64,000 nt of DNA. Origin: Octopus sinensis (lineage: Eukaryota). Below the pieces are notes generated by a model, which saw only the letters and a list, made by a program, of their open reading frames with translations, was not told the DNA's origin and made no database searches. Positions within the stretch are counted from its first letter, which is position 1, and every line of letters starts with the position of its first letter. The position numbers were made by a program, and so were the translations under genes. Below are positions 9,725 through 63,904 of this stretch, piece by piece. The stretch spans positions 1,302,001-1,366,000 of the forward strand of contig NC_042997.1 in NCBI RefSeq assembly GCF_006345805.1, read 5' to 3'.

Positions 9725-9866
9725 ATGATAATAATGATGATGATGATGATGATGATGATACTAATAATAATAATAATAATAATAATAATAAGAAGAAGAA
9801 GAAGAAGAAGAAGGAGAAGAAGAAGAAGAAGAAGAAGAAGAACAACAACAACAACAACAACAACAA
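9683..9866. repeat. Compound trinucleotide array (ATG)n-(ATA)n-(AGA)n-(ACA)n
   Basis: Seen directly. Confidence 0.97.
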
Positions 9867-10151
9867 TATGGAAAGGATTGAGGTAAATCTTCCTGAAGAT
9901 ATAGAGTCAAAATTCAAAGAAGAGTGCTATTGTTATCTAGTGAACGATATTTCGATATCGTTCACTAGATAACAATGGCACTCTCCTTTGAATTTTGACT
10001 CTATATCTTCAGGAAGATTTACCTCAATCCTTTCCATATTAACCAAAAGGAAGTGGATTGACAAATTTATTTTTTGAACCAGTTGAAGACACACAAGATG
10101 TCGAAATATCGTTCATTCGATAACAATGGCACTCTTCGTTCAATTTTGACT

Positions 10152-10153
<2 letters not shown>
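9865..10153 (+). mobile_element. Short retrozyme-like / non-autonomous PLE insert: inverted copy plus ~1.3 tandem units of 151 nt
   Basis: 9865-9950 is the reverse complement of 9955-10040 (2 differences). 9960 onward recurs at 10111 onward (period 151). A hammerhead-like motif lies at the unit junction. Confidence 0.65.
10075..10115 (+). ncRNA. Minimal type I hammerhead-like motif with variant core
   Basis: tgaac-CAGTTGA-A-gaca(cacaaga)tgtc-GAAA-ta-TC|gttca. Stem I 5 bp, stem II 4 bp, palindromic stem III ATAT, AUC site. Core differs from CUGANGA at positions 4 and 6. Confidence 0.55.

Positions 10154-10225
<72 letters not shown>
10153..10225. repeat. (AAT)n microsatellite
   Basis: About 24 perfect units. 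Confidence 0.98.
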
Positions 10226-10432: not shown

Positions 10433-10545
10433 TTCAAATTTTGTCCCAAGGGCAGCAACATGATGATAGGGAGTAAATCAATTACATCACCCATAGTCCT
10501 CGACTGATACTTCTTTTATCGTCCCGGAAAGGATGAAATGGAAAG
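10433..10545 (-). mobile_element. SINE fragment
   Basis: tttcaaatttt...gcagcaa...attacatc...ttttatcg...gaaaggatgaaa, the same family as the 31 kb cluster. Confidence 0.6.
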
Positions 10546-11967
10546 ATACATAATACATATAGATACATATAACAATTTCCATATCGGAGCCGATGTGAAT
10601 TACATCGGGCGACTTGACATTTCTTTATGCTTTATCAAATCGTGAATCACAGCTGAATTTCATTAGCACCCCATTTCTGCTTAATCACGATAATACGCTT
10701 TGACACAATTAGTTCATTAATGAATAAAGAGATCATTAATTTCAAGTTATTAATTAGTCCTCATTATTTTTACAGTTGTGATTACAACTTTCTGCAAAAT
10801 TAACCAATGTAAAACTATAATAATTTTCGATTACTAACATAATCTTAATTGTGCATCCTCATTATAACTGTTGCATCGATACTTAGGGTTTAAACTATTG
10901 CTTCATATAGATTTTTCTAGATATTATACGCAGAATGATATTGGAATAATTGTGAATGTAAATATAATTCATGATTGACTAATTGCTTTTCATTGGATAC
11001 ATTATTTGAATTATTTCATAAGGCATCTAAAAAATTATTGATGTTGGTAGTGGTTTAAGCTTAGATATAACTGAGGCTCTAAAAGACGCCTCTCGCCAAT
11101 CATATGTCACTCCCTTTTGTAGTTTTGTTTCCGTTTTTTTTCTCCTTACTATGTATATGATTGTAAAAACTTTTTCCATATGCAATGTGCAAACGTACTT
11201 TTAGTATATGTATTAACTTGCTTCTGTGCGTATTTACTTATTACTTGAAAATATTCTATTAAAATATTCCACTCATTGAAGTGAAATTATTCGATAATCG
11301 AGGGTTAGCAGAGGCTACACTTCAGTACCAAAGTTTTCAATATAATCACTTATATACTTTGGTCCGGATACTTGAAATCTTTATACTGAACTTAAACTTG
11401 TTTCCTTTTGTTATTTTTCTGAAACAAATATTGTTTACACCATTTCATTAGGGATATTTTAATATTTTTCCTGGTATTTCACTTCTTGCTATATCCAAGA
11501 GATACCCCCACTACTCTGCGCAGAATGATATTGGAATCATAGTAAATGTAAATCTAATTCATGATTGACAAATTGCTTTTCGTTGCTTACATTGGGTGCT
11601 TACCCTTTTCGTGATATCTACTACCTTCGGTTTCAATATTACGGGCCTCGATTTACTAATCATGTCTATGAGACATTAATCTTTATCACTTAAATTTGCA
11701 TGGAAAAGTATTTATCCACAGGTATGGCTGTTTCGAAAGATATGATATGAATAATACATATATGAGCTTCTATAAATCGATAAAAACGCATGATGTCTAT
11801 TGTGTTCTATTCTAGTTAAAAATAATCTACTGTCAGCTGGACAGTTAAACATTTAGAGATTCAATGAACATACTGTAATCACAAAAAATGTCAAACATAA
11901 GAAATAATCCGTTTTTGCAAGAAAAACCAAAGTAATCTACCTATCCGGCTACCTGCCTTTGTGTTTG

Positions 11968-19003: not shown

Positions 19004-20180
19004 TTTCTTAATACATTGTTGGTAACTACCTTATCTCCATTTTCTTTTATAACTGTATAACGAATATGAGCCCCAACTATGCGAACCTTTTCTTTGGATA
19101 CTTTGAGCCCCAAATGTTCTCACGATTTACTGGTCCCACTGCCGAACTATAAGGTCGTTATATCGATGACTGTATCGGTGCAACCTCACTATCCCGTGGA
19201 TAATTAAACTCATTCCACTCTTTTGCCCAATCATTCCATCCTGCCCTCGAATTCTCCTGCCCTATTTCTAACTCTTCCGTCGCACTTTTAGACATGTCTG
19301 TCAGTATGCATCACTCCGGTCTCACTACCTCCATCCACTACAAACACACAGACTCGCGCTCCTGCATTAAATTCTCCGTTTCCCATCCTATCAGCACCAA
19401 GCTCTCCATCCCCAAGCTCTACGGTGACAAACATGACATTGAGACTCAGTTTCAACTCATGGCTCACCACTTCATCCTTCATCGATATCCCCTCACCAAT
19501 ACCCATATTACCCTTGCCAGGGCATGTTTCGTGGGGCGTGCTTCTGCTCTTTCTCCCCGCACCTGCACAGCCATTTCCCATCTTGCGTTTCCCGTCACCT
19601 ACCACCCTTTCACAACACCCTCAAACGCTCCAATCTCCGAGCCTTCCGCAACACAAGTCCGACCCCAACATCTCGCACATCTTCTCCAACCAACCACTTT
19701 CCTCCTTCAAACGAGCCCACAACCTGCAGGACCTTCTGGACCACAGTCTCTTTGCTAAGTCCACCTCCCAAACTGGCTCGTTCCCTTGCTCCCGCCCACG
19801 CTGCCTTATTTGGCACTACCTCTCTAACACCACCATCCGCACAGGCACCCATCATCGTCTCTATCACATCACAGACTCCTTTACCTGCACTTCATTTACT
19901 GCATCACCTAGTCTTTCTGCCCTTGTCTGTACATTGGTCAAACTAGGCGCTGCTTGGTTGACCGGTTGGCAGAGCACCTCAGAGAAATCCATCTCGTCAA
20001 AGACATCTAGGTCTCGCCTCATCACTGCTCTACTCTTCATTTACTACAAATTCTGTGTTCGAACTGTTTTTTCACAGAGGTCATCTAGACTCCCGTCTTC
20101 GACGTGAACATAAATTAATCTTCTTTCGTCGCTCCTTTGCATCACATGGGCTCAACACTCTTCCTCTCTTCATCTGACTC
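19004..20180 (+). mobile_element. Penelope-like retroelement, decayed RT and GIY-YIG endonuclease
   Basis: MSPNYANLFFGYFE, GRYIDD (YIDD at 19159-19170), FHPALEFS, LDMSV...TTSIHYKHTDS, GSFPCSRPRC, DSFTCTS, LYIGQT.R.L.DR.AEH and HGLN. Stops and frameshifts present. Confidence 0.92.
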
Positions 20181-20299: not shown

Positions 20300-21515
20300 A
20301 GAGGGGGTGCTGAAAGAAAGGTTGCTTTTGAGATTTTGATTACTCAGCCCCAAAGAGAGGTACGTATGTCTGACAGGTAACATTCTGTCCGTGGTGTCTT
20401 AGTATTTTTTGTTCTTTTCATGTGAAGCCATGGCACTATAGACGATAGAGCAACGCGTGTTTGCCTAGGGCAGTTACGAGAAGTACATCGAGCCTATCAC
20501 AGCAGTTCAGCGTGAGTTTCGGCGCCACTTCAACATACCCCGAAATTCGGCACTTCCCACCAGCAACACAATCTTGGTTGAATGCACTTCGTACACGTGT
20601 AAACAAATGAATAGGATAATATTGAGGAGCCAGGAAAATGTGGAATGCGTCAGACAAACTTTGATACGGAATCCAAATCGCTCTGCTCGGAGGCATTCCA
20701 TCGAACTTACCATCGATTATCGATCGGTAAGGCGTATTTTGCACGAACACCTGAATTTCCACCTGTACAAATTGATCATTGGGCAACAGTTTAAACCATT
20801 GGACAATTCACAGCAGCTTAAATTCGCCCGTCAAATGGAGCAATTTTTGACGCCAATGACATACTCATTTTGTTAATAGGTGATGAAGCCCATTTTCATC
20901 TCAGTGGCATGGTGAATCGAAAGAACTGTCGTTATTGGGTTCTTGAAAATCCGAGAAAACCGCAGGAAAACCAGTGCACACCCCAAAAGTTACGGTTTGC
21001 TGTGTTGTTGGAAAAGTTGCCATCATTGGTCCTTATTTTTTTGAAGACGATAATGGAAATGCTGTTACTGTGAACTCCGAGTGTTACATCGAGATGATAA
21101 ACAACTTCTTTGTGCCTGAATTACGATGTAAACGTATGTCTGTTCGACGTATGTGATTTCAGCATAAAGCGGCGTCGGCCTACAGAGCCACAGCCTCAAT
21201 GGGCACTCTTCGCCCTCTCTTCGGTGACTGCCCCATTTCCAGGTTTGCTGATATTCCTTGCCTCACTCGGTCCCTTGATTTGTCCATGTGTTATTATTTC
21301 TTGTGGAGATACCTCAAAACACGTGTGTATGCGCCTAAGCCGCAACTTCCAAGAACGCCTTTAGAAATGTATCAATGAAAACGGATACAACGTAATGGAT
21401 GTTGTTTTCCAAACTTGATTTTGACATATGCTAGTTTAATACAAACTCATTGATGTCAATAAAACTTGTTTGCAGCTAAAATTAATGATTTTGTGAATAT
21501 TTCAAACACGCCCAC
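20300..21515 (+). mobile_element. Decayed Tc1/mariner transposon, DD41D (rosa/VS)-like
   Basis: N-terminal TIEQRVF..TAVQREFRRHFN (DUF4817-type HTH), NPNRSARR, GDEAHFHLSG.VN..NCRYW, IIGPYFFEDDNG.AVTVN and RSLDL..YFLW.YLK. There are 41 residues between the mutated 2nd and 3rd catalytic positions. Confidence 0.85.
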
Positions 21516-21977: not shown

Positions 21978-22024
<47 letters not shown>

Positions 22025-22058
22025 CATATATATATATATATACATTCATACACATACA

Positions 22059-22134
<76 letters not shown>

Positions 22135-22135
<1 letters not shown>

Positions 22136-22840
22136 ACAGTTACCGGTAATAGGTGGATGTAGTTATAACTGGGCTTCATGTACCTTTGCATATCTTTTAA
22201 GTCCTGCCGAATTACACTCTCTTCGCCATGCCTGAGAAATATGATTAGGATGGTGTGTAACACCACCATCAGTGGCCAGGTTGTCACTCATCTGTCTCGC
22301 TTTATGACTAAGAAGATGACTCTTGAGTCCAGCTTTACTAAGGCAGGGTTTTGTACAGACACTGCATGTCAGCATCATAGGAAGACCCTTCCCATCTGGA
22401 AGTGTAACAGCGATGCCCTTCCTGACATCCCTCCTTACTTTCTCATGCGCAACTCGAGATTTCTCAAATATAGCTGTCCCCTCGTGCATGATCCTTCTCC
22501 ATGATCAATAGCTATACCCTCCCATGTGTCAGGAAAGATGCAAGTATCTCTTAAGGAAGCCATCAACAAGTCCTTATACCTCCTTTATTGTTTATGTGGA
22601 GGTCGTTCTCCTTTAGCTAACTCTCCATAAAAGAGTTGTTTTGGCATTCTTGAATCCTTCATCCTGACCAGATGACCACTCCATCTGATCCTTTGCTTTA
22701 ACACAAGAGCTTCTATACTTTCGCACCGAGAGCCTTCCAATATTTCAAGATCACTGATCCGGTCCTCCCAGTTAGTGCCATAGATCCGTCGGAGACACAT
22801 CTGATGGAGACGCTGCAGTAGTTTAAGGTGGTATCGATAT
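22135..22840 (-). mobile_element. RTE-clade LINE 3' fragment (copy 1)
   Basis: CLRRI...W.DRI...E.L, RWSGHLVRM.DSRMPKQLFYGEL..G.R, and a terminal C2H2 finger CSVC...LSKAGLKSHLLSH. Confidence 0.9.
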
Positions 22841-23169
22841 GTATATATGTTGTAAACTTCATGCAGCTAACCTTAATTTGTCTATACATTTATTCATTCG
22901 ACGTTTCATGATGAGCATACAAACTAAAGCAATTTCATTGCTTCCACAAACGAACTGAAAACAAAACTAACATATAAAAAAACACACGAGAGAATGAAAA
23001 GTGTATACTCAACGGAATTCCCTATAAAAATAGGGAACTCATTTAAAGATTAAGATCTATGTATGAAAGCGCTAACTTATCTTTATGGGCATTACAAAAT
23101 ATTGTTTTTAATATTAAGATACCATATTAAAAAACGTGAAAACCAGACTGTTTTACCTTTATTCAACTG

Positions 23170-23223
<54 letters not shown>

Positions 23224-23278
23224 ATATATATATATATATATACATACATATATATATATATACATTCATACACATACA

Positions 23279-23311
<33 letters not shown>

Positions 23312-23360
23312 TATATATATATATATATAATATATATATATATATAATATATATATATAT

Positions 23361-24065
23361 AACAGTTACCGGTAATAGGTGGATGTAGTTATAACTGGGC
23401 TTCATGTACCTTTGCATATCTTTTAAGTCCTGCCGAATTACACTCTCTTCGCCATGCCTGAGAAATATGATTAGGATGGTGTGTAACACCACCATCAGTG
23501 GCCAGGTTGTCACTCATCTGTCTCGCTTTATGACTAGAAGATGACTCTTGAGTCCAGCTTTACTAAGGCAGGGTTTTGTACAGACACTGCATGTCAGCAT
23601 CATAGGAAGACCCTTCCCATCTGGAAGTGTAACAGCGATGCCCTTCCTGACATCCCTCCTTACTTTCTCATGCGCAACTCGAGATTTCTCAAATATAGCT
23701 GTCCCCTCGTGCATGATCCTTCTCCATGATCAATAGCTATACCCTCCCATGTGTCAGGAAAGATGCAAGTATCTCTTAAGGAAGCCATCAACAAGTCCTT
23801 ATACCTCCTTTATTGTTTATGTGGAGGTCGTTCTCCTTTAGCTAACTCTCCATAAAAGAGTTGTTTTGGCATTCTTGAATCCTTCATCCTGACCAGATGA
23901 CCACTCCATCTGATCCTTTGCTTTAACACAAGAGCTTCTATACTTTCGCACCGAGAGCCTTCCAATATTTCAAGATCACTGATCCGGTCCTCCCAGTTAG
24001 TGCCATAGATCCGTCGGAGACACATCTGATGGAGACGCTGCAGTAGTTTAAGGTGGTATCGATAT
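23361..24065 (-). mobile_element. RTE-clade LINE 3' fragment (copy 2)
   Basis: Duplicate of 22135-22840. Confidence 0.9.
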
Positions 24066-24392
24066 GTATATGTTGTAAACTTCATGCAGCTAACCTTAAT
24101 TTGTCTATACATTTATTCATTCGACGTTTCATGATGAGCATACAAACTAAAGCAATTTCATTGCTTCCACAAACGAACTGAAAACAAAACTAACATATAA
24201 AAAAACACACGAGAGAATGAAAAGTGTATACTCAACGGAATTCCCTATAAAAATAGGGAACTCATTTAAAGATTAAGATCTATGTATGAAAGCGCTAACT
24301 TATCTTTATGGGCATTACAAAATATTGTTTTTAATATTAAGATACCATATTAAAAAACGTGAAAACCAGACTGTTTTACCTTTATTCAACTG

Positions 24393-24464
<72 letters not shown>

Positions 24465-24466
24465 AT

Positions 24467-24512
<46 letters not shown>

Positions 24513-29520: not shown

Positions 29521-31039
29521 CAAGAAGCTCTCCTTGAAATAACAGCCACATGTGGAATTAACTGCATTTCTTCCTCCATCAGTTACTGTTTGTATTGGAA
29601 TAGTTTCACTAACTAGGAAGCAGTTGAGCTATATCATGGATCAGCTGACGGCTGCTCAACGAGATTTAATTTAGCAGTTTTACATGTTCGTAAATTGCTT
29701 TTCCGCGATATGATTGATTTGAATGTAAACACAGGTTCTCAGATCTATGTAAAGGAAGACATTATTAATCTTACATTATTTGAAAACATTATGAAATAAA
29801 AGTGCAGATGACATGTATTTTGAAATATTAACTATTAAATAGTTTACAAAGTTTGCAAAGATCTTCTACTAATGTAACATGTGTTTAAATGTATTAACAT
29901 AGCATCTCCTTCTTCGAGTAACTAATTTCAAGTTGTGTATAAACGGCATTTTGCCCAGGATATATGCTGAATAAGGCCGGGCCATATACTTAAATGTAAT
30001 ATGTGTGTAAATGTATTAAAATAGCATTTTGTTTTCCAGGTAACCTATTTAGAACTTTTTTATGAACCGTAACTCTCTCAGAATATGCCATGCTGAATAG
30101 AGTTGAACTACGTTATTATTATTCCAATTAGTTGCTAAAGAAACAAAATGCAGGAGAAAATAATTATTGATTTCCTTTTCATTGTTAACAAATAGTTCGT
30201 ATCTCCACTATTTTCTATTGTAGCAGGTCGAATACACAAACAATTAATCAAGCAAACAAATGCGACAAAAATGATGGCAACTAATTTTCTAGTGAGTGGA
30301 TATGTTGGCTGGTAGAATAATGGCAGTGGTGCATAATAATAGTATTCGTTTTTAAACCAATAGAATTATAATTTTATATAGAATTTACTTTATAAAATGA
30401 CATTCTAAATGGAAAGGGTAAAATACAAAATATGAAATGCTCTCTGAGATATAGTTCTAATGGACTATATAATTTTAGAACATTACCAAAGGCAATATAT
30501 TTGCTTGCTAAGACTACTCAGTCTAAATAGCAGCAGTAAGAAAGATAAATAGATAGTAATATGGAGGTAGTTGAAAATTAAATTGTCTTACATCAATTTT
30601 ATTTTGTATCCTTTTCTGGAAATACATAGTTGCCTAGCAACTCATATATAACCTATTGTAATGACATAATTCTTCATAGGAACTGAAAGATCACAATAAT
30701 ATTTCTATATTGATGTGAACATAGAAAATCGAGGACTATCATATTAGTTTCAGATGCTGTATTTAAACTCCACCTTCAACACGAAAGTAATTCTCAAAGA
30801 AAAGAATATACAAATTATGTATTCTTCTCGTCATTTGAAATTGTACATTGTAGTAAACCAATTACCTTATTTTATGATTCTTGCGACGACTACTTTAAAA
30901 TGTTTTCTTCCCACTCTCTTTCTTTTTTGGAAATCTCTCAAATTTCGTGGTTACTAGTGATATATTATTGTTCGCGTTCGATGGGACTTCCTATAAACAA
31001 TAAGAAAATAGCGTTAATAAAAGCAACATTAATATTAGT

Positions 31040-31655
31040 TTCAAAGGCCAGCAATTCCAGTGTAGTGGGTATGTTAATTTTATCGACCGCAGTGTTCAAC
31101 AGGTACTTATTTTATCGACTTCGAAAGGATGAAAGGCAAAGTCGACCACAGTGGAAATCGATCTCAGCAGGTTAAGACAGACGAAATGCTGCTGAGCATT
31201 TTGCCGGGTGTGCTAACTATTCTGCCAGTTGGCCGCCTAAAAAGATATATAAAATAGCAACATTAATATTGATTTCAAAATTTGGCACAAATACAGCAAG
31301 TACGGTGGTAGGGGACAAGTTGATTACATCGACCCCAATGCTCAACTGGTACTCATTTTACACGAAAGGATGAAAACGAAGTCAACCTCAGTGGAATTTG
31401 AACTCAGAACGTGCAGACGAACAAAATACCAATTTCTTTACTCCCGACAAGGGGCTAAAGACAGAGAGGACAAACAAGGACAGACAAATGGAATAAGTAG
31501 ATTATATCGACCCCAGTGCGTAACCGGTACTTATTTAATCGACCCCGAAAGGATGAAAGGCAAAGTCAACCTTGGCGGAATTTGAACTCAGGACGTAGCG
31601 GCAGACGGAATACCTCTAAGCATTTTACCCGACGTCCTAACTCACCGCCTTCAAG
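31040..31655 (-). mobile_element. Cluster of three head-to-tail tRNA-derived SINE copies
   Basis: Repeated ggtactt...atcgac...gaaaggatgaaaggcaaagtc(g/a)acc...gaa(t)ttgaactcag near 31100-31170, 31350-31410 and 31525-31650. These are the reverse complement of 32961-33180. Confidence 0.9.
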
Positions 31656-32960: not shown

Positions 32961-33180
32961 GGCGGCGCGCTGGTTGCATCGTTAGCACGCCGGGTGAAAT
33001 GCTTAGCGATATTTCGTCTGTCTTTACGTTCTGGGCTCAAATTCCGCCGAGGTCGACTTTGCCTCTCATCCTTTCGGGGTCGATAAATTAAGTACCAGTT
33101 GCATACTCGGATCGATCTAATCGACTGGCCATCTCTGCCAAAATTTGGGGCCTTGTGCCTAGAGTAGAAAAGGATATTAT
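32961..33180 (+). mobile_element. Well-preserved tRNA-derived SINE
   Basis: ggcggcgcgctggttgcatcgttagc...gggctcaaattcc (A/B box-like), then gccgaggtcgactttgcctctcatcctttcggggtcgataaa. Several copies in the window. Confidence 0.9.
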
Positions 33181-43031: not shown

Positions 43032-43305
43032 TTGACGTCAGAAAATTCTGAGAGAAGAAAAAATAATTCCATTTTGCAATTGAATCTCGAAGTATAACTA
43101 AAGCTGAATGATGTCATCTAAAAATGTAACACAAATATTCAATGGCAGTCGAAATAAGCCTATCCAAAAGAGTCCAATTGAAAAAGATATTAGATAATCA
43201 CACATGCACGCACACACATCAAAATCCTCGCACACACATGCACACATGCATATGCACAGACACCCCCACATACAAACACACACACATACATACACACACA
43301 TATAT

Positions 43306-43825
43306 ATATAAAAATAAGGATAAGATCAATATTTAAATATCGATCTTATCAAGTGGCCAGCATGGGAATAAAAAACCTTTCAAAGGTAATAATTATTATT
43401 AAAATCATAATTTAGGGTATCTAAGAGATACCACCACGCCGAAAATAGCAATCGAAACTTGACTCTAAAACCACATTATTTGTTCATATAGCACGAGGAG
43501 AGAAGACAAAGAGACAAAATTAACTAGTGGTGGTGTCTCTTAGATACCCTAAATTATAATTTTAAAAAATTATTAAATTTGAAAAGTTTTTTTTATTCCC
43601 ATGCTGGCCACTCGATAAGATCGATATTTAAATATCGATCTTCTCCTTATTTATATAAATTTATATATTTATTTCGTCATTATATTCACTGCGGTGTTTA
43701 TTCTGACAATATCGTACGAGGAGGTTTAAGGCGGGCAATTTAAGCTGGTGGCATACATACGTGCATATATATATGTATGTATATACGTTCGTATATGTAA
43801 GTATACCTATACGGTATGTTGTATA

Positions 43826-43903
<78 letters not shown>

Positions 43904-44131
43904 GTTGTATTTATTTGTTATCTGAGTGTATTCCACTGATGAAGGCAGATCATCTCTTATGTTAAGTCAGAAATCCAGGATCTGGAATTATCCAGTAATT
44001 CTTTGCTAGTTTCTTTTGTCTCTTTGTCCTCTCTCCTAGTGCTATATAAACATTTAATATGGTTTTAGAGTCAAGTTTCGACTGCTATTTTCTGCGTGGT
44101 GATATCTCTTAGACGCCCTAAATTATAATTT
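43306..44131 (+). mobile_element. Retrozyme-like / non-autonomous PLE insert: inverted copy plus ~570-nt unit with partial tandem repeat
   Basis: 43306-43436 is inverted to 43527-43657, and 43411-43527 is inverted to 44007-44125. 43527 onward recurs at 44096 onward. Canonical hammerhead core at 43936. Confidence 0.75.
43930..43988 (+). ncRNA. Minimal type I hammerhead ribozyme
   Basis: attcca-CTGATGA-aggc...gtca-GAAA-tcc-a-gga-TC|tggaat. Stem I 6 bp, stem III ATCC/GGAT with a 1-nt loop, AUC cleavage after 43982. Stem II is imperfect. Confidence 0.75.
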
Positions 44132-45029
44132 ATATATATATGTATGTATGCATGTATGTATGTATATTATTAAATACATACGTATCACAAAACATCACCC
44201 GATAATAAATCAACGTTGCTTAATAGCAGTGAACATGTGCTCGGTGCCTTATTAAAATTGTATGCATATATAATTTTTTACATAACTCATTTATACCTAA
44301 TATCTATTGTTTTTATAATGTGGCCAGAAAATAATTACACCCAGTAAGATTTATGAAGATTATTTATATGTACACGCACACGCATATATATGCACACACG
44401 TACAGATACAAACACACATGCACACACAGGGACACAAACACACACATTTAAACTTTGTCTCTCTCTCTCTCTCTCTCTCTCATATCCATACAGAGAGAAC
44501 TTTATTAAATTCAAAATGAATCGAACTACAGCGTTGAAAAAAGAGTCAACTTAAAATTCGAATTGCAAACAAACCACTACGAACATGTATACATTTTCAC
44601 ATTCAAAAGAAAAATTTACGTGATACAAAACACTTCTGAAAAGTGCCTTTGATGTCAGTCAGTTGCCAAAGAAACTGTATTCAATTGAGCTCAATTCAGA
44701 TGAAATTTTCTTTGTTTAAAAGAAGAAAAAAAAACAGTTTCAAAAACTTTGAAATCCACAAATTTGTAATCATCAGAATATAAAGTTGATTATGTGAAAA
44801 TTTAATGTGAAAGTTGATTCTATAAAAATTTAAATAAGTTTATATGTCTTGATTCTTGTCTTTAGTTTTAAAACGTCATGGTAGGTGAAATGTTATTGAG
44901 AACTATCATATTACTATCATCATAGACCTGTGAGTACATTGTAAACTTTTCCTGTTTTTTTTTTATAAATAACTTGAATCATAGATTTATAACCATAAAT
45001 CATAGATTTATAATTGTCATTTCCTACTG

Positions 45030-47153: not shown

Positions 47154-47187
<34 letters not shown>

Positions 47188-49296
47188 CATATTCACACAC
47201 ATATGTATATGTATATATTAATTTATGTAGCCAACAACTTTTGTAGTTCGATAACCAGCATTAACATAGAATGCAATGTAAGCTCATACTTTTAAAATCT
47301 TTAGGTGTGCACTGCCTTGTTTCTTTCAGTAATGCACTGTCTTTCAGCGTACACTAGTTGACTGGTTTGCGTTCAAATCCAGCCGTACGGCAGCTCAGCC
47401 CACTCTCTCACTTGCTGTAGCATATTAAACCTCAGATGGGATAACGTAGAGGGACAAGAGTAAGTACCTCAGTCTTAGAGTGACTACACATTCCTCGAAA
47501 ATACGTACGGAAAGCATACCGATAATTACCAATCTATAATCTCTCACGATGATCTATGAACTTTGTAATGTGTTCATTTTTTTTCATTTCAAGCAAGCAT
47601 GATTGAAGTTGCCTGTCAACTATCAATAGAAATATATGTCAATTCCCATCAATCAGTCATGTGATATTCTGTTACGTTTAATTTCTTTCTGAATCCAAAA
47701 CTTCCCTAGCAACTTCGACGGATAACCCTGCATATTAACTTTTTTCAAGATCAGAGTCACGTGAATGAGTATGTTTATTATTCAAAATGGACGGAGGATG
47801 CTGCGTGTTTAGGCATCGTAAGTACCTTTCACTAGTAATCTCTAACGCTTTTAAAGTCAAAACTTAATTTAAGTTCCTGAAAACCTAATTCCTGAAAATA
47901 TCTAATTCATGTTAAATTCTTACTAACGTCAAACATGAGCATGCTGGGACCTCCTTAGATCAATAAATTCAAAGCATATTTTAAGTAAATAACGTGTTAT
48001 TGTAGATTGGGCACACAGAAACATTTTCGAAATCTGATAAAACCTAAAATCTCAGGTGACACATCTCATATTTACTTACATTCACTCTAGTTACCTACTG
48101 ACTATTGTATTTTAGTAAATTCAGATCTGAATAACGAGAATCGAATGTATAGACATGAGTGTAACGTTTATTAAACGTTTACCCCTCGCTGTTGTATTTG
48201 AAAAGACTTTACTCAATGGTGTTCTGAAAATAATTATCATACGTAAAAAAAAATGTATAAGTAATTATAGGAAGTGGTGAATACGTTAACATACTATACT
48301 GTGTTGGATGGAATGTATTTCAGCTAAGTTGTTACAATGGAACAAGATAATATGCGTCTTACTGTATATCCATATTTGTATTAAATATATTTCTAGCATC
48401 CGTATTTTAAAACAGTGTTTAATTTTATTTAATCTATGTAGTGTATATTCGGAACAGCTAATAATATCTAGTTTTACAGAAATCAAATATATATTTAGTC
48501 CTGAAATATATATCACTTCTGGAACACATACACATATCCACACACTTTCATACACAAATACTCACACACGGACACACACAAACTTTCATACATACACACA
48601 CACACATATATGTATGCATGAGGGCGCACCTGTGTCTATTGTTACAGGAACATACATTCATACATATGTACATTATCTGCATCTCTCTTCAACTATGTGT
48701 ATGTATGTGTGTGTGTAAGTGTGTGCGTGTGTACATAGCCTCCTGTACTTCATCATCTTTCGTAGCATCGTTTATCTATACACACACATGTATTATATGT
48801 ATGTATGCGTATAAGATTTATATATGTTAGAAAGCAAAATGTCTCTATTTAATAATATCCCACAGTTTCAAACAATGTTGTTGAAAGGCTTAGGAGAAAA
48901 ATAAATAAACCAGAGAAAGAAACCAACCATTATTATGTTTATTTAGAATTAAATGTTAGATATTAGGTTTGATATTACAAATCGATGGCCCATAATGATT
49001 TACTAGGTTTCTATTTCATTATTTATATAGCTATTTATTTAATTTTCTCCTCTTTCATCGTGTTCAAATTATATCAGAGTATAATATATATAGGCTCATA
49101 GTGGTCACAGTGTAAATTCTGTTGCTGAAAATATTTAATATGGTACTGGTGATGGTTGCAGTTAGGATGGTTGAAATATTATTTACTGAATGGACACAGT
49201 TTTTGTTGTAGGTCCAAATAAACACAATATATACGAATATATGCAAATACGTATGTACGTTTGAATACATACACACCTCCAAACAGAGACATATAT

Positions 49297-49376: not shown

Positions 49377-49418
<42 letters not shown>

Positions 49419-49995
49419 CATATTCACACACATATGTATATGTATATATCAATTTATGTATCCTACAACTTTTGTTAACCAGCATAAACACCATAGAATG
49501 TAACGTAAGAAATGGTTATAAAACAATAAACTTGCTGATATAATGAGATATTTAGCAATGAATCTTCAATTGAACAAAAATAATTGAAAAGGATGTAAAA
49601 CAAGGTGTATGTGTGTATATCCTATTACATAAATTTTATTTCTATCAACATTGCCTATACAGCATAGTGGTGTATATTTAGGAAAGTGAATCTAAAAGCT
49701 GTTTATTCGACAACACTTCATGCAAGAGTGATGGAAAACTATACGAAGCAAAACATGTTCAGTTCCATTTTCTTGGCAGGGAATATATAACAAACCTCTG
49801 TTTACTCAAAATCCATACAAGTGCATCGCATAGTAGACACCAGAAAAATGTAGATAAATTGCGTGTTGTCGGCAGTGTTGATATATGTGCGTTTCTGACT
49901 GTATGTATTTGTGTGTATATGTGTGCGTACGTGTGTGTGTATGCAAGTATATATTTATGTATGCATGTATGTATGCATGTATGTATGCATGCATG

Positions 49996-50668: not shown

Positions 50669-51943
50669 TCAATATACTTCTAGCCATCGCTCATATTCTC
50701 TTTTTAACCAAATCCAGTGGCTAGCCTTCCCCACTGTAGATTAGATATCAGTCATGGTGGTATTGACTTTACGATGAGTTAGGCCTAGCGATAACAACAG
50801 TCGTCTCACGCTGTGTCCAACAAACCCTCTACATCCGACTTCGATAGGAAAATGTTCCACTTTCCAGCCTGCGTCTTCACATTCCTCGAGGAGGTTTTCA
50901 TAACGGTTCAATTTTCGAGCCCGAGCGGCGTCCATATTATCTTCATGAGGAACCGTTAGCTCGACTATATTTACAACCTTCTTTCTTTCACACCACATCA
51001 AAATACCTGGTTTTTTCGTAACTGGGATGGGAAAGAAAACCTGGCACCCAGGTAAATCTGCAGTTACCTCCCAATAGCCGTTCCACTTTTCATTTTTCTC
51101 AGGAAGTTTCTTGATCTTCTTCTTGTAACGGATCCGCTGACCTGGTCGCACGAAGGTAATGGAATCTCTTAATGGTACGTTCACCGGTTTTTCCTCAGTG
51201 TTGTTGAAATGAATTTGGTTCTTTATAGCATTGAAGATAACCTTCAGGACCAAGTTGTGCCTCCATGTATACCTGCTCAATGCTAATGCACAGTTGGAAA
51301 GAAAATGTTTTAGTGTACCGACCTTTCCACATTTGCAGATGTAATTCTCTAAGAGGTTCCATCTTACTAGATTCATAGGTGATGGCAAAACATCATAAGA
51401 TGAACGAATCAGGAAACTCAGCCGAGATGTCGTCCACTTCCACATCTCATCCCAACTTATCTTCCTCTCAACAACATGTTCTTCCCATCTCGTCATCTGA
51501 CCTTGATGAACACATCGGATCAAATGAAGCTCTCTTCTCTCTGCTTCTCTTGTTTTGACGCTGTTGCTAACAACAGATCTTCGTTCACTCCGCATCATGC
51601 TTGCAAACGGTCTGAACTGATCCGCGCCAAAACCAAGTCCTTTCCGATGGTTCTGCGTTGCTCCCACCATATCGCTGTGTATAAGAGAAGACAAGATGTC
51701 GTCAGTTTCTGCTTCTGCTTTCCACTTCCTGGCTGTTTTCACCTCTGGTGGGTTACGCCTGATTTCCATATCCTTCGATTCTCTGAGCATCATGACCGTC
51801 CTTATCTTCCCCAGCTTATATATTTCGACTATTGATGCTATTGGTAGCTGCAACGAACCTCTTTCAAAAACTACAAACTCCCAACGTTTCCCTTCTAGCT
51901 TTTTGGAAAGCGGGGAAGTTTCTTCAGAATGAACGTCGTCCAC
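50669..51943 (-). pseudogene. C-terminal ORF of HERO-like element (CCHC knuckle and restriction-like endonuclease)
   Basis: LQLPIASIVE, RKWKA, GLGFG, SFLIRSSYDVLPSP.NL..W, CKCG...TLKHFLSNC, YTWRHN.VL, KPG (PD motif mutated), VELTVP.ED, PIEVGCRGF. Reading through the stop at 50741 gives KASHWIWLKRE...*. Confidence 0.88.
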
Positions 51944-51999
51944 CTGTTGTTTCTGGATTGTCGTGTTTGCTGGAGGTGGTCTGGGATGTTTTAAGTTTG

Positions 52000-52505
52000 A
52001 TATTTCAGTAGAATTCTACGCATGCGGGAGACATCAAACAAAAGTGCAATATTGGGAGATTTTAGCTTTTTGGAAGCGAGTAGGTGATGGGTGTGCGAGG
52101 TGGGGGAAGGGGCATTGAGTGTTTCTTTAAGAAAAATTAAACTATAAAAAAAACGATATTTTTCCAGATTCATAATCTCTGTATTTTTCTGCGTAGAAAA
52201 ATAAATTAAGAAATTGCGGTGGGAATGGTGGGAAATAAAAATTTTGAAAACATGATTTCTGGACAAAATCGTATTAGCCCGAATTTATACAATGGAACAA
52301 TACATAGTTTGTGATAATTCTTAAGAAGAGAAAGCACTTTCATGCAACTTATGCAAATTGTACACTCCTCCACTTTTAAACAAACAATAACTTCTATTAT
52401 GCCGTTAAATAAATTTCTGTGCCGATTCTGCCCATAAGAAAGGAGCAAATAATACCATGTGCATGTAGGTCATAACAGCTGGGCAACGCCGGGATGCATT
52501 TCTAG
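52000..52505 (+). mobile_element. Non-autonomous Helitron, 3' part
   Basis: Hairpin ctgggcaacgccggg (52479-52493), then CTAG|T at 52502-52506. The hairpin is nearly the same as that of the 42.6 kb Helitron. 5' boundary uncertain. Confidence 0.65.
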
Positions 52506-58165: not shown

Positions 58166-58348
58166 TAACGTGACAGTAGGGTATTACTCACCGCTGTTTA
58201 GCCCTAGGAAGCATCGGCACTTCCTGTCGACTTCGACATAATAATAAAGGTGGAAATTTATAAGGACACAGGAATTGTGTCGAAGCCGACAGGAAGCGTC
58301 GATGCTTCCTAGGGCTAAACAGCAGTGGGTAATCCCCTACTGTCACGT

Positions 58349-58350
<2 letters not shown>
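58166..58350. mobile_element. MITE / foldback element with ~77-bp arms
   Basis: 58166-58242 is inverted to 58274-58350, with a 31-bp spacer. Outer TA dinucleotides could be the TSD. Confidence 0.8.
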
Positions 58351-61770: not shown

Positions 61771-63904
61771 TATGTATACATATGGATATATATTCTATGC
61801 ATGAATACTAGCAATTTCGTAAGCATACGTATGTGACTAATTTTCTTACGTTTTCAATTATAATAACCATTTATTTAATTGTTATACAGATGCGTTTGAA
61901 AACATTTAAAATTTTTATATATTTGTTTTCATTTCTAATATAGTTGGTTATTGATATTTGTGATCTATACATTTATATATGAAATAATTTTGTAGTCGAA
62001 AAACAGTATCTTTATACATAGCGAAAAACAGTATCATTATACAAAGCGATCGAAAGTAGTTTCACTTAATAGATTCCATGAAATTAATGTCGCCAAAGAA
62101 TCTTAATTGCGTTTAGTTTTACCAGATCATCTTATTTTTGCAGTAACTTCTCTCCTTTTGTTCGTGTTCTAATGATGCAATTAGATTTTTAATGCTCATT
62201 GGAAATAGTAGTTGTGCTATATCTCAACGTATTGATTACAAATTTATGGTACTATGACGTATAGATGTATTCCAACACCGATATCTTTAAGCACTTTACT
62301 GTCATGAATTTCTTAATGGATACCAGTAAGATACGAAATCAGAGCCAAATGATTACGTGTACCTATTTTTTTTCCCCAAGCATCTCCTTTTATTACATAG
62401 TAGGATCTGATATGGGAGGTATTTTACTCTTATTTAATGTTGCAGAAAAAAACGTTCAGACGTTTTTGTGCTGGCTTATTGCATGGATGTTAGTTGGTGT
62501 CTAGAGACTTCGTGGCGATTATATAAAATGCTGGATTGGCAGCTAGCAGAGTCATAACACCACATTCTCTATACTAGTGTCGTCCTCTTTCCGAGTAGAA
62601 AAATGTTTTCTGTGTCATCTTCGGGAGTCACATAAAGTGACGACCAATAGCAAATGAAATTAACATGCGGATATTAACATCCCTCTCCGTATCTATTTAA
62701 TAAAAAGTTTCTAGCAGGAGACTTCAAGTAATTCTCAATAAAGCATATAGATAGAAACAGCTTTCTCTCTAAATATAGAAATGAATGCACAAACACACGC
62801 ACACGCACGCACACGCACACACACTCACACATACACACACACACGAATACATATAAACATACATATGCTAGAGGTAAATGCATTTCATACGAAGACAATA
62901 AATTCATAGATATGTTGATTGACACTTTATTGATAGACGTATTTAATGGCATTCCAATTCTTGAAAATGTGCTGCAATCTAGATGAATGTCTATCGATAA
63001 CCTTTGTAACCGCAATATTTGCAAATTGGTCACCCATCAATATTCAATTGAACATCCTATGTAGATTATTCAAAGATATATCTAGATACCGAACAGCTCA
63101 AGTGCACCATTATTTACAGTCACTTATTTAACCTCCTTTAGCTATGTAACTGTCGGAAGAAGATTGCACTGAATATTACTTAAGCTGTAGTGTGAAAGAT
63201 TCCTGTTACATTTCTTCTGAAATAGCTAATTAATTGGAGCCCCCTTGGTAGGTAATATTTCATTCTTAAGGATAAATTATATATTACCTGCAAAAGGGAC
63301 TTCAATTAAATAGCTATTTCAGAAGAAATATAATAGGAATCATTGAATTTTTTTTTATCTGTGTACCTTCGCTGAAGCAAATAGGCAGGTGCTTTTCATA
63401 CCATCTGATTGGCACGTTTCAATATTTTGTTGTTGTATTGATGGTCAAACCGATTTTGACTACAGCCTTATTGACAGATGTTAACAAATTATGTGTATCC
63501 TGAAGTTCATAAATTCTAAGGGAAAATCCAACAAATGTGTACGATCAGTATTTACGATCTGATGACCCGGTTTGTTTTTGTTTTTGTTTTTGTGTAATGG
63601 TGAAGCACTTGACAGGGATTGAGTTAAGATATTGCCTAAATATCTTATCTTCTACGATCATAAAAAGAAAAGAAGATATGATCACTTCCCTGTCAATCTC
63701 TCTCTGTTTTTCTCCAACCGTCTCTCTCCCATCCTGTTTCTCTCCCTTTCTCCCTCTTTCTGAATTATTCCTACAATTGTCGGAAGGTTTTGTTGGATTG
63801 TACGTAGAAAGACTTAAGGATTTCCTTGTATGATAGTCTATGCTGTGCCTATCACATTTGTGTTACAATAGTCCTGCAATGTATGTAACTTGACCTTCCA
63901 GGTG

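Follow-up and report, generated by a model that had tools for sequence, protein, structure and literature searches.

A short insertion without an open reading frame, lying near 44 kb in a 64-kb stretch of Octopus sinensis DNA (hereafter the window, meaning the whole stretch analyzed), raises the question of whether it is a member of a small family propagated by the enzymes of Penelope-like elements (PLEs), and whether such families carry microsatellites as cargo. The window is AT-rich, animal-like and dense in microsatellites, with 53 purine-pyrimidine tracts occupying 4278 bases. We consider it highly probable that PLE machinery was involved in the locus. Our best reading, held at slightly better than even confidence, is one old insertion of a short, non-coding and propagating PLE derivative, served in trans by the reverse transcriptase (RT) and GIY-YIG endonuclease of an autonomous PLE.

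The insertion occupies 43310–44131 (~820 bases) and consists of an inverted segment, an ORF-less unit and a short restart of that unit, all between two copies of ATATATATAT. Its features are as follows (no strand is given for palindromes and the microsatellite):

43300–43309 (+): left copy of ATATATATAT, candidate 10-bp target-site duplication; closes a host (CA)n/(TA)n tract, and the same 10-mer follows the right end of the insertion
43310–43527 (−): inverted 5′-truncated copy, 218 nt, without a hammerhead; its sequence begins 23 nt past the predicted cut, spans the unit junction and reaches ~128 nt into the next unit
43319–43350: palindrome of 32 nt, lying 9 nt in from the left end of the insertion; as a hairpin it scores −15.3 kcal/mol when 61 nt are folded
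43527–44095 (+): 569-nt ORF-less unit (body)
43527–43562 (+): first 36-nt repeat, the equivalent of the Penelope 34–37-bp repeat or "tail", with a 7-bp hairpin (−9.4 kcal/mol); 32/36 identical to 44096–44131
43528–43740 (+): stop-free frame of 71 codons (84 across the unit junction), candidate decayed start of a PLE ORF
43614–43645: counterpart of the 32-nt palindrome within the forward unit; 30/32 identical to 43319–43350
43752–43903: internal compound microsatellite, CATA/TA/TATG-like and then a perfect 68-nt TA run at 43832–43899; resembles host tracts elsewhere in the window
43930–43988 (+): type I hammerhead motif, predicted cut between 43982 and 43983
44096–44131 (+): 36-nt restart, the 3′ tail; it finishes 149 nt downstream of the predicted cut
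44132–44141 (+): right copy of ATATATATAT, candidate target-site duplication, with host (TATG)n directly after

The architecture proposed in the initial annotation was thus recovered: an inverted segment followed by a ~570-nt unit (43310–43527 and a period of 569 nt), an inverted copy starting about 25 nt downstream of the cut (23 nt by our count), a restart of the unit at 44096 (36 nt, 32 of them identical) and a (TA)n tract inside the unit (array 43822–43903). The left boundary of 43306 given there is acceptable, as the left edge of the inverted segment falls in an AT-ambiguous zone (43300–43310). The inverted segment is the reverse complement of 44006–44095 running on into 43527–43664, with 204 of 226 aligned bases identical; it differs from the forward unit at 10/90 positions in one part and 10/126 in the other, and pairwise comparisons of the 36-nt repeats gave 4/36, 4/36 and 2/36 differences. 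Divergence between segments amounts to 8–11%, which would correspond to a decay of ~4–5% per segment if all segments arose in one event.

With the insertion removed, what remains is a (CA)n(TA)n(TATG)n tract of a kind present elsewhere in the window. Both ends of the insertion touch a purine-pyrimidine tract, as a random point does 8% of the time, and both lie 9–14 nt past a hairpin. The duplicated 10-mer remains a candidate target-site duplication, because it sits inside a microsatellite where slippage is possible. The ends of the inverted and forward copies differ by ~92 nt and not by the usual 30–40, which is the one unusual detail of the locus; the unit itself ends 113 nt after the predicted cut. 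Downstream of the hammerhead, a strong pyrimidine tract ending in AG (44010–44039, +) resembles a splice acceptor, its AG being missing from the inverted copy.

As described in PMC2377424, Penelope copies have a 34–37-bp repeat at the start of the body, often again at the 3′ end, and commonly bear large inverted terminal repeats. An inverted 5′-truncated copy, a 30–40-bp tail and a bias toward insertion into (TA)n are given as general PLE traits in PMC8557442 and also in PMC8969392. The octopus locus displays the 36-nt direct repeat at both ends of its body, the inverted 5′-truncated copy adjoining the 5′ end (~92 nt past the tail, more than usual) and a TA-rich 10-bp repeat on both sides, this last within a microsatellite and at a site type that chance would touch at the 8% rate above. 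Judged by this layout, a PLE-driven origin appears well supported, the mechanism being one already known.

The hammerhead string lies at 43930–43988 exactly as the initial annotation had written it, and this was the only match to the type I descriptor on either strand of the 64 kb. Stem I comprises 6 bp (43930–43935 with 43983–43988), the core is intact (43936–43942, 43970–43973 and 43981–43982), and stem III is a 9-nt palindrome (43973–43981) with its central A unpaired. Stem II (43943–43969) is degenerate, pairing at 7/11 positions and placing A43943 opposite A43969 at its base; it contains an ATG, 24 nt before the cut. The matched descriptor was found in 0/150 shuffled windows and 0/5000 shuffled elements, a looser one in 3/150 and 1/5000, and the most relaxed in 38/150 and 15/5000, all three disregarding stem II and the matched one having been set after the match was seen. 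The combination of core, stem I and palindromic stem III is beyond chance.

The label "canonical" nevertheless overstates this hammerhead. Apart from the A-A opposition and the gaps in stem II, a scan requiring at least 3 bp of stem II beside the GAA box passed over the site and returned one other, and Rfam gave 0 matches at the gathering score, while the 36 it listed at E ≤ 10 included no hammerhead. The miRNA matches in the same search were TA-repeat artefacts far below the gathering score. Measured against the minimal PLE hammerheads described in PMC4209133, the motif shares the conserved core, the extra base after position 9 (between 9 and 10.1), a helix I within the 4–6 bp range (here 6 bp) and a palindromic helix III region suited to dimers. 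It departs from them in that the conserved G10.1–C11.1 pair is lacking beside G12, where A43969 intervenes as an extra base before the GAAA box, in that helix II is interrupted where theirs is long (7–8 bp), and in the unpaired central A of the palindrome.

The poor stem II and the lack of an Rfam hammerhead would suit an origin without any retroelement, by a fold-back or a DNA-repair duplication in which hammerhead-like words arose by chance; so would the 38/150 shuffled windows matched by the most relaxed descriptor and the presence of two fold-backs without a hammerhead elsewhere in the window (58166–58350 and 63195–63344). We regard such an origin as very improbable, given that the matched and looser descriptors occurred in 0 and 1 of the 5000 element shuffles, and that strand, position, tail length and flanks are all PLE-like. 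The two fold-backs are long, with arms of ~70–75 nt, and can be described as MITE-like or as resembling inverted PLE ends; that at 58166–58350 adjoins a (TC)n(TA)n tract, and a hammerhead core was found in neither.

Folding of the motif casts doubt on its activity. The pair probability of stem I in the monomer was 0.03–0.05 in a 59-nt fold and 0.003 in an 88-nt fold because decoy hairpins occupy its 3′ strand; the hairpin at 43982–43995 reached pair probabilities of 0.8–0.96 in the 88-nt fold. The hammerhead fold scores −2 to −3 kcal/mol, 8–12 kcal/mol above the free ensemble, under a folding model that excludes tertiary and protein effects. Adopting the active fold would cost 8.1 and 9.7 kcal/mol for the monomer and 10.0 and 12.4 kcal/mol for the double hammerhead, and the cost per ribozyme thus drops from 8–10 to ~5–6 kcal/mol on dimerising. 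The proposal that stem III acts in dimers is consistent with these values, given the lower cost per ribozyme and the −7.6 kcal/mol duplex predicted for two molecules joined through the 9-nt palindrome; the active form nevertheless remains disfavored, and decoy duplexes still win. Cleavage by this copy is doubtful on the folding model, and its ribozyme is probably crippled. The anole PLE ribozyme cleaved only with protein, according to PMC11167929, and naturally occurring hammerheads that are mismatched where helix II begins at its base are mentioned in PMC7229834. The hammerhead of the source element was probably functional as a dimer or with protein help. Circular RNA junction reads at 43982/43983, which the initial annotation had suggested searching for, would be uninformative, since religation at the hammerhead would restore the genomic sequence.

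The description of the element as ORF-less was confirmed. No long ORF is present, and outside the microsatellite no stop-free run exceeds 84 codons, a length that was reached by 119/3000 shuffles on the sense strand and by 155/3000 in six frames. The frame opens in the first 36-nt repeat, and the ATG within stem II is in frame with it. Two stops separate the ATG from the open frame, and both must have been present in the template, as the forward and inverted copies share them. A 70-aa query from the open frame obtained 0/11 candidates in the homolog search and nothing below E = 0.15 in Pfam. Its single match among 1.84 billion representatives was an artefact, in which weak matches to a tandem-repeat protein were summed (27% identity, 21.6 bits per repeat). 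A minus-strand frame of 101 aa over the hammerhead and the TA tract, used as a protein-level probe for copies that join the two, drew 10 weak matches, with coverage of at most 47% where an alignment was reported; these matches were judged low-complexity. Translations, homolog searches and Pfam revealed no RT or GIY-YIG ORF in the element, which therefore does not qualify as an autonomous PLE, and no autonomous partner was linked to it by the protein-level searches.

The frame bears on a competing explanation, in which the locus is a one-off, internally deleted autonomous PLE: 43527–43751 would be the start of its body with the 5′ part of the ORF, 43904–44131 the end of a pseudo-LTR with hammerhead and tail, and the ORF would have been lost by a template jump or by later deletion at the TA tract, with no short family involved. 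Such a deletion accounts for every terminal feature equally well. The Penelope 34-bp repeat is reported to mark the beginning of the ORF (PMC2377424), and the frame here opens in the first repeat and continues for 71 codons, or 84 across the junction. The distance from the in-frame ATG to the cut, 24 nt, compares with 26 nt in the anole element as described in PMC11167929. The 84-codon frame, at the shuffle rate given above, mildly favors a deleted autonomous copy. The two template stops between the ATG and the open frame count against it, although an intron could excuse them, as do the lack of a protein match in homolog searches and Pfam and the existence of a 152-nt element at 9.9 kb, which suggests that short units of the same plan occur in this genome. 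On balance we rate the deletion as rather unlikely, yet deserving to be kept in view beside the propagating short derivative that we prefer.

The element at 9866–10154 lies between (AAC)n and (TAA)n and is composed of 86 inverted nucleotides (84/86 identical), a unit of ~152 nt and a restart of ~47 nt. Its hammerhead-like motif (~10076–10115) folds well and has good stems I and II with two core changes, the reverse of the situation at 43 kb. Its 5′ ends lie 5–9 nt upstream of the predicted cut, which indicates that the template was uncut. As the initial annotation had held, the two elements are unrelated in sequence: comparison revealed no significant similarity, with best local scores of 28 and 34 in AT-rich stretches and no blastn match. 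An 18/22 palindrome match between them was discarded because the palindrome at 9.9 kb was made by the fold-back junction. Two unrelated short elements of one plan support the existence of several PLE-dependent lineages, each seen once. The broader claim that several retrozyme-like families share one PLE mechanism goes further than this locus, with its single hammerhead and no second copy in the window, can show. When the non-microsatellite sequence was searched against the 64 kb (blastn, word size 7), only microsatellite matches were returned; with one copy in the window, the reading as a short family is weakened. A scan of prokaryote genomes for the 36-nt pattern gave 0 matches, as expected.

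That such elements carry microsatellites as cargo is not supported beyond this unit. The idea rests on one unit, as the 152-nt unit at 9.9 kb has microsatellites at its flanks and none inside, and two elements yield no general rule; moreover, such a tract begins within 25% of random 420-nt stretches of the window. The element around it has decayed, yet the 68-nt TA run is perfect, a contrast suggestive of slippage in place. The internal tract was probably in the template in some form, and this slippage would account for its present length. We found no report of microsatellite-carrying retrozymes or of cephalopod hammerhead elements in the literature searched, which consisted mostly of non-subscription papers.

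The tract may alternatively be target DNA, with two pieces of one PLE family (43310–43751 and 43904–44131) flanking a host TA tract, so that the 570-nt unit would be illusory. The internal tract is indeed host-like, sharing with the right flank an 18-mer that occurs seven times in the window, and PLEs are said in PMC6765202 to tend to insert into or beside existing copies. This arrangement needs a 3′-truncated piece and three different 3′ ends, while PLE copies are 5′-truncated; the forward piece, moreover, begins exactly at the tail repeat, and the family is found nowhere else in the 64 kb. We therefore consider it improbable.

Under the preferred reading, a single insertion of a short PLE derivative, the enzyme would have nicked both strands of the (TA)n tract, at points ~10 bp from each other. 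From one of these nicks, reverse transcription would have started within a tandem or circular RNA, where the 36-nt tail ends, and the hammerhead, uncut or religated, would have been read through to give a cDNA of one whole unit plus 36 nt. Priming from the second nick may have begun ~92 nt further along the RNA, beside the 32-nt palindrome, and this second cDNA would have halted after 218 nt, just short of the 3′ hairpin of the hammerhead; joining of the cDNA ends would produce the inverted-plus-forward structure. The restart and the inverted copy both cross the unit junction, from which it follows that the template extended beyond it, as expected of a tandem or circular RNA. The forward copy reads through the hammerhead, from which it follows that the template was uncut or religated there. 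The stop of the inverted copy 23 nt from the cut is explained equally well by a cleaved end and by a stall at the hairpin 43982–43995. A start at the cleaved 5′ end was accordingly set aside as unproven, since this hairpin would stall the reverse transcriptase at about the same place. A folding z-score of −8.0 for the whole unit was likewise set aside, as it stems largely from the TA hairpin and the palindromes. A copy with a single hammerhead probably cannot excise a unit-length circle by itself.

The purified anole PLE enzyme is described in PMC11167929 as nicking both strands of AT-rich DNA and using uncut RNA, and by the coordinates of that paper reverse transcription starts inside the RNA, ~85–92 nt downstream of the site cut by the hammerhead, compared with 113 and 149 nt for the unit end and tail end of the octopus locus. 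Both non-autonomous derivatives of PLEs and retrozymes present as monomers have been described (bioRxiv 10.64898/2026.07.22.740005; PMC8557442), and recently active Penelope-like families are reported from Octopus vulgaris in PMC13282606.

Other repeats are scattered through the window. Decayed, frameshifted frames at 19066–20160 (+) gave a GIY-YIG match at E = 0.16 in Pfam and 0/12 candidates in the homolog search; by their motifs they look like a PLE RT with a cysteine linker and a GIY-YIG domain. This candidate relic of an RT and GIY-YIG gene (19.1–20.1 kb) shares no DNA similarity with the 43-kb element by blastn. A tandem duplication of ~1.3 kb at 21988–24512 (98% identity, with a TA-rich tract in each copy) contains frames that look, we presume, like the 3′ end of a non-LTR retrotransposon, the one frame tested in Pfam being null. 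Pfam was also null for a 424-codon stop-free frame at 50741–52015 (−), which is presumably similar to the C-terminal endonuclease portion of a non-LTR retrotransposon, and for a 135-codon frame at 20469–20876 (+), which we assume to resemble the N-terminus of a Tc1/mariner transposase. Related short repeats cluster at 31019–31642, 32961–33126 and 10440–10550, the copies at 31–33 kb matching one another; we take these to be octopus-type SINEs. Finally, a 131-nt duplication (86%) at 47155–47282 and 49386–49509 starts inside a TA tract and runs on into unique sequence.

Comparison with known systems places the locus among short non-autonomous or deleted PLE derivatives and not among retrozymes. 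With EN+ Penelope-like elements (Penelope/Poseidon, Neptune; structures A and C of D. virilis Penelope as described in PMC2377424) it has in common a body between 34–37-nt direct repeats, an adjacent inverted 5′-truncated copy, a type I hammerhead upstream of the 3′ tail and, probably, an AT-rich or microsatellite target. It differs from them in having no RT/GIY-YIG ORF, a body of 569 nt instead of ~3 kb, and an inverted copy reaching ~92 nt past the tail end. Chlamys non-autonomous PLEs such as MRC1 are similarly non-coding, owe their pseudo-LTRs to PLE machinery and come from a clade with a microsatellite insertion bias, whereas they are algal and most Chlamys elements, in the account of PMC8557442, lack a canonical hammerhead. 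A schistosome-type, SINE-like hammerhead repeat was also considered and rejected, with no tRNA in the window and 0/12 B-box matches within 43300–44141.

In PMC7229834, animal non-LTR retrozymes are described as tandem repeats that bear type I hammerheads and are expressed in circular form, and a use of PLE enzymes is proposed for them. The preprint 10.64898/2026.07.22.740005 derives retrozymes from PLE pseudo-LTRs, with sizes of 51–972 bp and monomers among them, so that the view of animal retrozymes as PLE derivatives is already in print. The locus resembles both descriptions in its short, non-coding, low-GC unit, type I hammerhead and proposed PLE mobilisation, and at 569 nt, without a protein-coding ORF or a true protein match, it has the size and coding profile of a retrozyme in the range of the preprint, in which monomeric copies are also described; it is longer than the 150–450 bp given in PMC7229834. 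In contrast to these retrozymes, it consists of 1.06 units with one hammerhead and no tandem array, its stem II is degenerate, and it contains an internal microsatellite. We do not file it as a retrozyme because it is not tandem, having one hammerhead, a 36-nt restart and an inverted copy without the motif. Active elements are defined in the preprint by at least two consecutive units, each containing a complete type I hammerhead, and 8 of the 9 dimers tested there showed no cleavage; statements on dimer cleavage also appear in PMC6765202.

Overall, the locus is a tidy miniature of the Penelope inverted-plus-tail layout without the ORF, produced by a known process. The retrozyme–PLE preprint is, by its own statement, mainly concerned with vertebrates, and invertebrate cases with full insertion signatures would extend it. 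The ~92-nt difference between the two ends, each lying 9–14 nt past a hairpin, allows the internal-initiation mechanism known from in vitro work to be checked against genomic sequence. A more far-reaching scenario, which we consider quite unlikely, is that of a high-copy family of miniature PLEs carrying its own (TA)n target, each insertion of which would plant a new microsatellite and the next landing site, with ends primed at two hairpin-marked start sites ~92 nt apart. If the TA tract were fixed in a large family, PLE parasites would be linked to the birth of microsatellites, and, if the scenario is true, such self-targeting retrozyme-like elements would help to explain the very high microsatellite density of this genome.
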